Shown one piece after another: positions 35,321 through 45,892 of a DNA stretch of 64,000 nt; position 1 is the stretch's first letter; the number at the start of each line of letters is the position of its first letter. Location of the stretch: NCBI RefSeq assembly GCF_056712565.1, contig NZ_CM160072.1. One strand, written 5' to 3'. The notes below the pieces were generated by a model, which made no database searches, was not told the origin of the DNA, and was given only the letters and a program-made list of their open reading frames with translations. Position numbers and translations under genes: made by a program.

Positions 35321-36067
35321 TTACCGGGCGATGAGTGCGAACACGCCCCAGCCAAAGCATTCCCGCGCGTAGGTCACGTAGCGTTTCGGCGCGATGTTTA
35401 GTTCGGCCCTGACTTCGGCGGCGAAGTCATCGTCAGGATTCGCTTCCAGCCAGCGGCGCATGGTCAGCCATTTTGCGGCTTCATACCGGTCCCAGCCTTC
35501 CTGGTCTGCCAGTACCATTTCCACCACGTCATAGCCGAGATCGTCGAACGCTCCGACAAGTCCTGGCAGCGTCAGGAAATCGCTTGTCGAGCTGACGCCG
35601 CAGGCCTGGGCTATTTCTTCTGTTGCTGGTAGCTGACGCCAGTAGGGTTCGCCGATAAGCATGATCCCGCCCGGTTTCAGGCTTTGCGCTAGCAGCTCCT
35701 CCGCCCCGGCAAACCCACCGGCAATCCATGTCGCGCCGACGCAGGCCGCCACGTCACATTTTTCATTTGCGACGTAACCGGCCGCATCGTTATGAATAAA
35801 ATGTACGCGTTCGCTGACGCCGAGTTCTTCCGCGCGACGCTTTGCCTGCGCGGTGAAGAGCGAACTCATGTCGATGCCAGTCCCCGTAATGCCATGATCC
35901 CTGGCCCAGGTGCAGAGCATCTCGCCCGAGCCGCTGCCGAGGTCAAGAATGCGGGTGCCCGGCTTCATGCGCAGCACGCGACCCAGCGTGGCGTACTTCT
36001 CTTCGGTGAACGGGTTATGGATGCGGTGTTCACTTTCGCTGATGGTAAAAATACGTGGGATATCCAT
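35321..36067 (-). CDS. yjhP: SAM-dependent methyltransferase
   Basis: 248-aa ORF with LDLGSGSG motif I. Confidence 0.8.
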   Translation of the reverse strand: MDIPRIFTISESEHRIHNPFTEEKYATLGRVLRMKPGTRILDLGSGSGEMLCTWARDHGITGTGIDMSSLFTAQAKRRAEELGVSERVHFIHNDAAGYVANEKCDVAACVGATWIAGGFAGAEELLAQSLKPGGIMLIGEPYWRQLPATEEIAQACGVSSTSDFLTLPGLVGAFDDLGYDVVEMVLADQEGWDRYEAAKWLTMRRWLEANPDDDFAAEVRAELNIAPKRYVTYARECFGWGVFALIAR

Positions 36068-36122: not shown

Positions 36123-36668
36123 TCACGTCAGTGCTCCGGTTTCATCAGGGTCTGCGCACCGGATGTGGCCGGTCAGGGTCATGGGCTGAGCGGTGAGTGA
36201 TTGCATCATCCAGCAGGCTTTGTGCTCCTCCGGGATGGGATAAGGTGCCGGATAGCCTTTGTCTCCGGCACAGGGTTCGAACCCATGTCGGGGGTAATAG
36301 GTGGCGTGGCCGAGAACAAAAACCGTCTGGCAGCCCATCAACCTCAGGTGCTCGATGCCAGTGCGTATCAACCGTCCTCCCACGCCCATCCCTTGGTATT
36401 CCGGTATGAAAGCCAGGGGAGCGAGGATGTGCATCAACGGTGAATCCATTTCTCCTTTGAAGGTTGCCCGGGTAAATAAAATATGCCCGACGGCTTTGCC
36501 TTCATACCGGGCTAGCAGCGATAACGCGGGGCGCGCGCTTTCATCCTCAAGTAAAGAGGCCACTAAATCGGCTTCTTTGCCGAAGCCAAATGCGCGGGTT
36601 TCGACTTCCCGGATATCACTGGCATCACTTTTATCTGTGATATGAAAAGTGAAGTGGTGTACTGTCAT
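36123..36668 (-). CDS. yjhQ: GNAT-family acetyltransferase (putative antitoxin partner of TopAI)
   Basis: 181-aa ORF with GNAT motifs (…YQGMGVGGRLI…). Confidence 0.8.
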   Translation of the reverse strand: MTVHHFTFHITDKSDASDIREVETRAFGFGKEADLVASLLEDESARPALSLLARYEGKAVGHILFTRATFKGEMDSPLMHILAPLAFIPEYQGMGVGGRLIRTGIEHLRLMGCQTVFVLGHATYYPRHGFEPCAGDKGYPAPYPIPEEHKACWMMQSLTAQPMTLTGHIRCADPDETGALT

Positions 36669-36679
36669 AGAAACTCTCC

Positions 36680-36936
36680 TTAGCGATTATCGAGCTGAGC
36701 GCGAACTTTATTCAGCTCGGTGGTGTTGATTCGATAGGGCTGGCCATTGACGGACTTGATAAGTTTTTGGTTTTGAGTTTTTTGAAGACGGCGAGCGTGC
36801 AGTCGGTCAGCAACAGCCCTTCGCGGCTGTAGCATTCAACGGAAGTGACGCGGCCTGAAGAATCGCGGACGTGCGCAATACGTCTACCTTTAGCGAGAAC
36901 GTGTAAGGTATGTTGTTCCTGACGGGATAAATTCAT
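36680..36936 (-). pseudogene. topAI: topAI/yjhX-family topoisomerase I inhibitor toxin gene with a frameshift in an A-run
   Basis: ATG 36936 to stop 36680 is 257 nt (not a multiple of 3); annotated frame ends early (…[23 protein letters not shown]), while a +1 shift at ACCAAAAAC (about 36765) restores …[28 protein letters not shown] ending just before the yjhQ RBS. Confidence 0.7.
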
Positions 36937-37897
36937 ACTGAAGAACCTATTTAATCATCATGTGCAAAACGTGCAAACACACCGCGGTGTCCGCATTCGA
37001 TTTCGGCGCATTGATAATCAGTCCGGCCTGAAAAGGTCGGGGAACTGATTATCGGATGATTACATTCTCCAGCATCAAAGCCTCGGGTTGAGTTGAAAGG
37101 TATTTACGGAGCGAATATTAACACGTAGTTATAGGAGGGATATGTTTCAGTAGAAAAAGTGTGATGTACTTTGGAAATTGAATGCCAACCCATTTACTGG
37201 AAAAGGCAGATGACACTGACGAATGCATGTTGAAGTACGCCTGAAATGGCCTCATCGGCTTTTCCCTTCGGGAGATTATTCTCCTTTTGTTAAATCCAGA
37301 ACATAAATATGCTCACCCATATTCGATGCTTGAAAAATTGAAGCCAATCCTGATAAGTAATTTTTTTGAAAGGGTATTTTCCGGATTCACACCGGCTTTG
37401 ATGAGTGAAAAACCGTTCTCTTTTATTCAGTCAATCGTGGCGGTAATTGCTTCAATTGCATATCCCTGGCGAGCATAAGCGGGACTGATGGTATAGCCGA
37501 GCCAAAACACATCGCATTGCTGACGTAAATAGATATCACCAATCAAAACCTGCGTCATTTGTTGACAATGGCCAATTGAATATCGCGAGCAAGTGTAAGA
37601 ACTCCCAGCAAGACCCTGTAAATAATTCTGTGTAACTGCCCACGATTAAAGGTGGCCGCTCAGGCGGTCACCGTATTCGATAATAAATGGGTCTGGAAAA
37701 AGTGCAGCATCTGGCAGCGTAATGCAGGTAGCCCAGTTCAACTCTCACTACCAGTATGATCCCAAGTTCGAGCGCGGAATGTATCTGTATGAGCATCGTC
37801 GCTGTTTCAATAACATCATCGACTACTGTAACTCACTTTGCTATCACGGTAAGTTGCAGCCTAAAAGAGGGATGGAAAAAGGACGATTTTCCCCGCA

Positions 37898-38914
37898 ATG
37901 GGATATTTACATATTGATGGTAGAGGCATGAAGCCAAATGGAGGGAGCCGTCATAACCCTCTTGAAGCTGAAACAATAGCAGCATGGCTGGTGGCACATA
38001 AGGATGATATAGAGCGCCATTACGGGGAACCACTGTACAAAGTTGTTGGTGTTGTGACGCCATTTTCGGCGCAGGTTAATGCTATCAAAATGTCATTGCG
38101 TAAGCTGGAAATTAATGGCAAAGACGAGCAGGGTTTACTGACAGTGGGGACTGTGCACTCCTTGCAGGGGGCGGAAAGGGCGATTGTTCTCTTTTCTCCT
38201 GTCTACTCAAAACATGAAGATGGCAGGTTTCTTGATAGCAACAGCACTATCCTCAATGTTGCTGTCTCACGCGCTAAAGATAGTTTTCTGGTATTTGGCG
38301 ATATGGACCTTATCGAGATGCAGCCCGCATTTTCGCCGCGAGGGTTATTGGCAAAATATCTCTTTTCTTCAGATAATAATGCGTTGCAATTTGAGTTTCA
38401 GAAACGACAGGATTTAATTTCCGCACATACACAAATTTCAACGCTGCATGGTGTGGAGCAGCATGATGAATTTTTGAACAAGACTCTTGCCGGAGCTCAA
38501 AAGAAAATAACGATTATTTCCCCTTGGTTATCCTGGCAAAAAGTGGAGCAAACGGGATTTCTGGCATCAATGGCTTTGGCCCGTTCCCGGGGCATTGATA
38601 TTACCGTGGTGACGGATAAAAACTGCAATATAGCGCATGTCGATGATGATAAGCGTCAGGAGAAACAACATCTGCTGAATGATGCTGTTGAAAAGCTCAA
38701 TAAGATGGGTATCGCTACGAAATTGGTTAATCGTGTTCACAGCAAAATTGTGATTGAGGATGAAGAACTGCTGTGTGTCGGATCTTTTAACTGGTTCAGT
38801 GCTACACGGGAAGATAAGTATCAACGATACGATACGTCTTTGGTGTACCGTGGTGAAGGCGTAAAAAATGAAATAAAGGCAATATATGGTAGTCTGGATC
38901 AACGTCAGCTTTAA
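37898..38914 (+). CDS. yjhR: Helicase-remnant protein (C-terminal SF1 helicase domain plus PLD-like domain)
   Basis: 338-aa ORF; the preceding ORF 37722-37931 encodes an adjoining helicase segment in another frame, so this is a frameshifted fragment of a larger gene. Confidence 0.65.
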
Positions 38915-39496
38915 ATGTGATGAGCCGTTCATGATACAGGAGTAGTAAAGGGCATATTTTACCAATGTTAAGGCGACTTTCCGTTTTATTGTGAGTCGCC
39001 TTTCCTGATTATAAATCTTATTGTTTACCTAATCATTTTCCTTTGCATAATGCGCCTGGGATTAATGGCGGGTGCTTTTAGGAATGAAAGAAAATGCAAG
39101 CAATAATATAATAATGGCCTAATTTCTTTGAACATCATTAAGCATATCATCATCGTCTATTTGCCAGAATCCGTCGACTTATAATCGCCAGAACGGCATA
39201 TCAGGACGGTGCTGCGAACGCTGTGGCCCAAAACGTTCCAGTAAACTGTGTAGATGTTCGTAGATTTCCGAGCCATAATCGAAAAGGCGCGGATGTCTAT
39301 TAAGGCATCCGGCTAATCTGTAAGCAATAACAACGGTTTATGCGGTGCGCGTTTTTCACCCTTGTGCCAGATTATTATATTGGCAATTGCCTGCTGTTCG
39401 AGCCCGCAAGTGAAGAGATATTACCTTGATCTCATTTGTTTTTTGTTGTCTACTCTGAGAACGAACAAGGACATCCCCCATGAATAAACTCCCCGC

Positions 39497-45565: not shown

Positions 45566-45892
45566 TTGGGGCCAAACTGTCCATATCATAAATAAGTTAC
45601 GACAAACTTTTTCAGTTTATTTGTTGGCTTAATATTCTATTGTTATCTTTATTTATAGATGTTTATATTGCATGAGGTGGTTTTTGGAGAGAAGAATGAG
45701 GAAGATGCGTCGAGCCACAGAAACGCATCTTCCTCATTCTTAGCTTTACATATAGCGGAGGTGATGTGAAATTAATTTACAATAGAAATAATTTACATAT
45801 CAAACAGTTAGATGCTTTTTGTCGTTTTTTAATATTTTTATGCTTGAGAAAAAATACGTAACTTATTTATGATATGGACAGTTTGGCCCCAA
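45566..45892 (+). promoter_or_regulatory. fimS invertible promoter element, oriented with the fimA promoter pointing at fimA (phase ON); bounded here by perfect 36-bp inverted repeats
   Basis: TTGGGGCCA at 45566-45574 and TGGCCCCAA at 45884-45892; -35 TTGAGA (45844-45849) and -10 TATGAT (45868-45873) read toward fimA; identity extends to TTGGGGCCAAACTGTCCATATCATAAATAAGTTACG (45566-45601) versus its exact reverse complement (45857-45892). Confidence 0.85.

Follow-up and report, generated by a model that had tools for sequence, protein, structure and literature searches.

Organisation of the topAI-yjhQ-yjhP locus

The window, meaning the whole 64,000-nucleotide stretch of DNA that was analysed, carries on its minus strand the genes topAI, yjhQ and yjhP, preceded by the regulatory uORF toiL (Table 1). 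The toxin gene had been identified as topAI in an earlier note on this DNA, and its sequence is indeed that of K-12 topAI save for one A; the yjhQ gene that the same note had described as intact is a complete ORF of 181 aa. The yjhQ DNA is identical to that of strain 104 (WP_001350781.1), and the YjhQ protein differs from that of K-12 by S30G and V87F. The YjhP protein is identical to that of K-12, as are the 330 nt upstream of topAI, toiL included. The published hallmarks of toiL, a TTG-ATG-CTG context, AAT as the 4th codon and Val5, are all present in the window (bioRxiv 10.1101/682021). The native topAI TAA is separated from the yjhQ ATG (36668) by a spacer of 11 nt, the length published for K-12 (PMC4666372).

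Upstream of the topAI leader, window positions 37290-39000 hold gene remnants, comprising fragments of an acetyltransferase-like ORF at about 37427-37558 and a truncated helicase gene, yjhR, with a 338-aa ORF at 37898-38914. The DNA of strain 104 is identical across 37290-39000, and its annotation lists yjhR as an incomplete pseudogene with a frameshift. In contrast to the private deletion in topAI described below, the remnants are thus old lesions that both genomes share.

Table 1 Positions of the topAI operon features and of the fim switch in the window
Feature	Position	Strand	Remarks
yjhP, SAM-dependent methyltransferase, third operon gene	35321..36067	-	Intact, 248 aa
yjhQ, GNAT-type antitoxin	36123..36668	-	Intact 181-aa ORF
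GGAGAG ribosome-binding site of yjhQ	36674..36679	-	Immediately follows the native TAA of topAI; 5 nt upstream of the yjhQ ATG
Displaced 3' part of topAI, -1 frame	36680..36763	-	L59-R85 and the native TAA; holds the conserved family motif
Frame-0 ORF of topAI	36712..36936	-	Residues 1-57 native TopAI, 58-74 out of frame
A5 run, site of the one-base deletion	36764..36768	-	A6 (codons K57-K58) in K-12, strain 104 and all top matches
First A6 run of topAI (K52-K53)	36778..36783	-	Intact in the window
toiL regulatory uORF	37049..37075	-	Intact; MLENVIIR and TAA, 8 codons
fimS	45566..45892		IRL TTGGGGCCA 45566-45574; IRR TGGCCCCAA 45884-45892

A single-base deletion places the 3' end of topAI out of frame

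Read directly from the window, the interval from the topAI ATG at 36936-36934 to the TAA at 36682-36680 spans 257 nt, a length that cannot be divided into whole codons. The earlier note had given this ORF of 257 nt, from the ATG at 36936 to a stop at 36680, with correct coordinates and arithmetic. In the ORF table, frame 0 extends for 74 codons and then meets a TGA at 36714-36712. On the minus strand the zero-frame codons around the run are GTC TTC AAA AAA CTC AAA ACC AAA AAC TTA TCA, and the -1 frame after the run reads CTT ATC AAG TCC GTC AAT GGC CAG CCC TAT CGA ATC AAC ACC ACC GAG CTG AAT AAA GTT CGC GCT CAG CTC GAT AAT CGC TAA. Insertion of one A into ACCAAAAAC (A5 at 36768-36764) yields a protein of 85 aa that is 100% identical to K-12 TopAI (WP_001054376.1 / YJHX_ECOLI), and a perfect match across 85 residues is not a chance pattern. 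Alignments show that the reduction of the second AAAAAA to AAAAA is the sole difference in topAI DNA from both K-12 MG1655 and strain 104. The one-base lesion in the A run and the C-terminus restored by a one-base shift, both proposed in the earlier note, are thereby borne out, since adding the A gives exactly K-12 TopAI. The comparison with K-12 that the note had called for gave a reference gene with A6 and 85 aa, which does not share the A5 run and the short C-terminus.

A 51-aa ORF in the restored frame (36680-36835) was considered as a separately translated C-terminal fragment and was rejected because it has no SD sequence and is absent from 15 billion predicted proteins.

Predicted effect of the truncation on TopAI

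In Enterobacterales, the full-length members of the family have 85 aa. Representatives at 50% identity, drawn from 1.8 billion proteins, can be aligned over their whole length and share the C-terminal consensus LIxSxxGxPYRIxxxGLxxVRxQxDNR; seven positions are near-invariant, with S62 and D83 falling in the part that is lost. The AlphaFold model derived from this alignment, with a mean pLDDT of 87.5, shows helices at residues 5-15, 48-56 and 72-83 and strands at 19-24, 30-36, 60-62 and 68-70. According to this model, the 28 residues dropped by the shift after K57 would comprise the last two strands, which form the second beta-hairpin, and the terminal helix.

The truncated protein still scores as a member of the family, with 100.2 bits against NCBIfam NF010240 (cut-off 99) compared with 148.6 for the intact protein. 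Pfam PF09857 is matched by residues 1-67 (E 1.4e-24), reaching only model position 67 of 85. The family context is also preserved, topAI being preceded by the toiL uORF and directly followed by yjhQ, the gene of the GNAT antitoxin. The single ORF of about 85 aa ending in S..G.PYRI...GL..VR.Q.DNR that the family requires is absent, the motif being found in the -1 frame only. Because frame 0 stops at 74 codons and the motif lies in the -1 frame, the gene is a disrupted member of the YjhX/TopAI family and, as written, a pseudogene.

No solved structure of a sequence relative was found in the PDB, and a Foldseek search with the model returned no match with E <1e-3, the resemblance being weakly winged-helix-like at a TM of about 0.4-0.5; the structural argument is therefore drawn from the AlphaFold model only. 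No truncation mapping of TopAI is reported in PMC4666372. If the base call is real, the 74-aa product is probably inactive as a toxin, because the conserved C-terminal motif, the beta-hairpin and the last helix are lost; on this condition the inactivation proposed in the earlier note is a reasonable reading. It could instead be that the deletion is real and the product retains partial activity, for example by binding YjhQ or TopA via its N-terminal helix-hairpin-helix, which would make this an attenuated or altered allele. Residues 1-57, with the first hairpin and two helices, are unaltered and still score above the Pfam and NCBIfam cut-offs, and no mapping of the TopAI interaction surfaces has been published. 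This alternative is nevertheless considered improbable: a third of a small single-domain fold is gone, including S62, D83 and the PYRI and DNR motifs, and the length of 85 aa is strictly conserved in full-length homologues.

An apparent fusion of YjhX to a 294-aa Salmonella methyltransferase, suggested by a shared 90%-identity cluster, was dismissed as a clustering artefact, as the two sequences share nothing.

The deletion is private among complete genomes

A 1.2-kb query matched 1772 of the 5426 RefSeq complete E. coli genomes, where the locus is annotated as 'topAI: YjhX family toxin' followed by 'yjhQ: GNAT family N-acetyltransferase'. The best matches had 99.9% identity and were one base longer than the window. 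Positions 20000-44999 of the window match at least ten genomes, including strain 104, SF-468, E166, MS15052 and other ST95/APEC-type strains, with 25,000 bases aligned to 25,001 and no difference except the topAI gap. A 106-nt query spanning the run located the locus in 1661 RefSeq complete genomes, none of which matched the A5 allele exactly; the best identity was 99.1% over a span of 107 nt. The run is A6 in all of the best 60 of the 1661, and A5 accompanied by a nearby SNP is conceivable in the remainder. Neither the RefSeq complete genomes nor the ten longest contigs encoding the 74-aa product included an independent assembly in which this ST95 haplotype carries A5. By these comparisons of sequence, the one-base deletion in topAI is private to the strain.

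A private gap within 25 kb that otherwise agree perfectly with many genomes is also what a sequencing or assembly consensus error would produce, and the loss of a single base from a homopolymer is the classic type of such errors. That the missing A is an error of this kind, the strain truly carrying an A6 topAI, is given somewhat less than an even chance. The whole 64 kb was compared with strain 104, and the differences are the topAI indel, an isolated SNP at 12388, a patch of SNPs at 15826-16903 (1.1 kb) and the fim switch. The topAI gap is thus the sole indel besides the fim switch, and all 85 other homopolymers of at least 6 nt are equal in length to those of strain 104, including the 21 of at least 7 nt, which are the most error-prone. 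The agreement of these 85 homopolymers argues that the assembly is not generally error-prone at homopolymers, and so weighs against a miscall at topAI.

Of the 64 substitutions that distinguish the 64 kb from strain 104, 63 fall in the patch at 15826-16903, and the other one is the SNP at 12388. The patch lies in a CP4-type island and, by the annotation of strain 104, extends across the yeeU antitoxin, DUF987 and JAB-domain genes. The clustering of its SNPs suggests gene conversion or recombination among paralogous islands.

Mosaic structure of the fim switch

The fimS element is mostly in the opposite orientation to that of strain 104, yet it is mosaic, combining sequence of both. The 27-nt inner end AACTGTCCATATCATAAATAAGTTACG was found, inverted, at both ends of fimS, and a perfect 19-nt palindrome (45692-45741) results from a 14-nt insertion at 45726-45739. 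The element exceeds its normal length by about 13 nt. This mosaic is present in none of the 5426 RefSeq complete genomes, in which the best full-length match to fimS is 92.4%, and it is probably a consensus artefact of a mixed ON/OFF culture.

The chimeric fimS means that the window consensus has at least one local defect, and its likeness to an artefact of mixed reads lends some weight to a consensus error in topAI as well. The fimS problem, however, arises from biological heterogeneity and not from homopolymer miscalling.

Frequency of the deletion in public assemblies

Exact look-ups of predicted frameshift products among about 15 billion proteins were used as a frequency control. The 74-aa product of the window was found on 39 contigs, with a further 9 for the equivalent product of the second major topAI haplotype, and is already catalogued as 'YjhX family toxin' (WP_001338190.1 / EFQ02591.1). 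For the first A6 run of topAI the corresponding deletion was found on 128 + 92 contigs, and insertions were found on 4 contigs for each of the two runs. For the A4 run the deletion was found on 2 contigs and the insertion on 0, and the tested C3 and G3 runs gave 0-1. One-base deletions in A6/T6 runs of ordinary genes of the window were found on 72 contigs for kptA, 23 for fimB, 326 (+343) for sgcR, 20 for yjhI and 14 for uxuR, and those in A7 runs on 551 for kptA and 467 (+310) for fimB. The topAI A5 allele is thus at the background frequency for A6/T6 runs, and this background rises with run length. Such a rise is expected from replication slippage and from homopolymer miscalling alike, and indel rates are known to climb exponentially with run length in E. 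coli (PMC8510543).

These counts bear on the origin of the missing base. The strong excess of deletions over insertions at both topAI A6 runs (128 contigs to 4 at the first, 39 to 4 at the second) and the similar counts reached by A6/T6 deletions in ordinary genes (14-326 contigs) are both in keeping with consensus error. Toxin-specific selection was rejected as the cause of the recurrence of the allele, since the ordinary control genes show the same level. One-base A6/T6 deletions are carried by tens to hundreds of public contigs in ordinary E. coli genes, so that finding such a frameshift in a toxin gene does not in itself speak for selection or phase variation.

Both A6 runs of topAI are AAAAAA, yet in public assemblies base loss is about 3-5 times as frequent in the first as in the second, and the counts for A6/T6 runs vary more than 20-fold (14 to 326). 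Clonal inheritance, sequence context or platform bias could account for the unequal counts.

Contigs carrying the same allele

The ten longest contigs with the 74-aa product (L003-L012) were inspected. Several other single-base gaps were present within 6 kb in six of them (L005, L006, L008, L010, L011 and L012) and three in L004, whereas L009 has one and L003 (CP041563.1) and L007 (GG749206.1) have no others in the same interval. The carriers with several nearby gaps are noisy assemblies, and the six or seven of ten with further gaps within 6 kb are again in line with consensus error. At least three haplotypes are represented among the ten carriers, at 3 to about 150 SNPs per 6 kb, and the ST95-type background of the window is not one of them. 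The allele, or the error, must therefore have arisen repeatedly.

In L003 a 2.5-kb element of the IS66 family (contig positions 3289-5818, corresponding to window 36649-36658) is inserted in codons 4-7 of yjhQ, so that both the toxin gene, with its A5 topAI, and the antitoxin gene are damaged. Judged from its sequence, the topAI-yjhQ module of L003 looks like a case of genuine decay.

A functional switch is highly improbable

The earlier note had suggested that the toxin might be phase-variable by slippage. The A tract would then be a functional switch, acting either by phase-variable A5/A6 slippage or by the production of full-length TopAI through programmed -1 frameshifting or transcriptional slippage. 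The lesion does lie inside a homopolymer, a -1 shift would restore the frame, and both topAI A6 runs are repeatedly affected in public assemblies. Nevertheless this reading is highly improbable, and the suggestion of phase variation is not supported: the tract is merely 5-6 nt long, no exact A5 was found among the 1661 RefSeq complete genomes with the locus (A6 in the best 60), and the frequency of the allele is that of A6 runs in non-toxin genes. Contingency tracts are usually homopolymers of at least 7-8 nt or consist of many repeat units, and slippage by the E. coli RNA polymerase needs runs of about 8-9 nt. The features of a contingency locus, a long tract and both lengths common in relatives above background, are accordingly lacking here.

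The same is true of the features of programmed -1 frameshifting, namely a slippery heptamer, a stimulator and a conserved two-frame arrangement. The zero frame ACC AAA AAC gives the heptamer C AAA AAC, which is not of the form X XXY YYZ. The 73 nt downstream fold with -13.2 kcal/mol (z -0.79), and 44 of 200 shuffled sequences fold as well. Neither an Rfam element at the site nor an SD-like sequence upstream of the run was found. In Enterobacterales and beyond, each homologue is encoded by one ORF of about 85 aa, so the two-frame layout is not conserved.

Possible origin and consequences of the deletion

The data are best explained by an unprogrammed loss, private to this strain, of one A in the second A6 tract. 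An even chance is assigned to this reading; the choice between a real mutation and a consensus error is near even. A real mutation is favoured by the 85 other homopolymers that match strain 104 and by reports that cells tolerate, and can even profit from, the loss of TopAI (PMC11695965). The same allele also turns up on other backgrounds in two assemblies free of other gaps, L003 and L007, and in L003 it sits beside an IS66 element at the start of yjhQ, as would fit real decay of the module.

If the mutation is real, the following course of events can be proposed. Replication slippage in a short homopolymer would have dropped one A from the second A6. Translation would quit the native frame after K57 and halt 32 nt early, at the TGA at 36712-36714, giving a 74-aa product without the C-terminal beta-hairpin and helix, and the TopA-inhibiting toxin would most likely be dead. 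The toiL leader, yjhQ with its own ribosome-binding site and yjhP are unaltered. The premature TGA lies 43 nt before the yjhQ ATG and yjhQ retains its own GGAGAG, which argues for little polarity on yjhQ and yjhP; for yjhQ it would be negligible. An induced cell would then make antitoxin and methyltransferase but no functional toxin.

A real deletion would thus define a strain without functional TopAI that keeps the antibiotic-sensing leader, the antitoxin and the methyltransferase, and would be relevant just to TopAI-dependent phenotypes (supercoiling, antibiotic response) in this lineage. If the deletion is an error, it is an annotation nuisance. It is also conceivable, though quite unlikely, that the two AAAAAA (Lys-Lys) tracts of topAI serve as mutational fuses: A6 to A5 changes would recur independently across E. 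coli lineages and be kept because the loss of the toxin is sometimes beneficial, leaving YjhQ and YjhP as an orphan pair and making the ST95-type strain an escape mutant.

Comparison with known systems

Contingency loci and frameshifting of the dnaX type resemble the topAI lesion in that a homopolymer is the site of the event and the frame would be restored by a -1 shift. They differ in that the tract in the window is too short and has neither a slippery heptamer nor a stimulator. Unlike the off state of a contingency locus, that of the window is not conserved, and close relatives are without on/off polymorphism (best 60 of 1661 genomes).

The gene order toiL-topAI-yjhQ-yjhP is common to the window and to the K-12 TopAI (YjhX)-YjhQ operon with its toiL leader (PMC4666372; bioRxiv 10.1101/682021), the difference being a toxin ORF of 74 aa with a foreign tail in the window against one of 85 aa in K-12. 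The amino-acid sequence of WP_001338190.1 / EFQ02591.1 is identical to the frame-0 product of the window, whereas the haplotypes that encode them differ. The locus is ordinary, being a frameshifted copy of a well-characterised gene whose allele is already known and occurs at a frequency typical of any A6 run. Compared with ordinary homopolymer frameshift pseudogenes and consensus errors, the deletion is of the same type and of the same order of frequency, and it differs only in hitting a toxin whose loss should be harmless.
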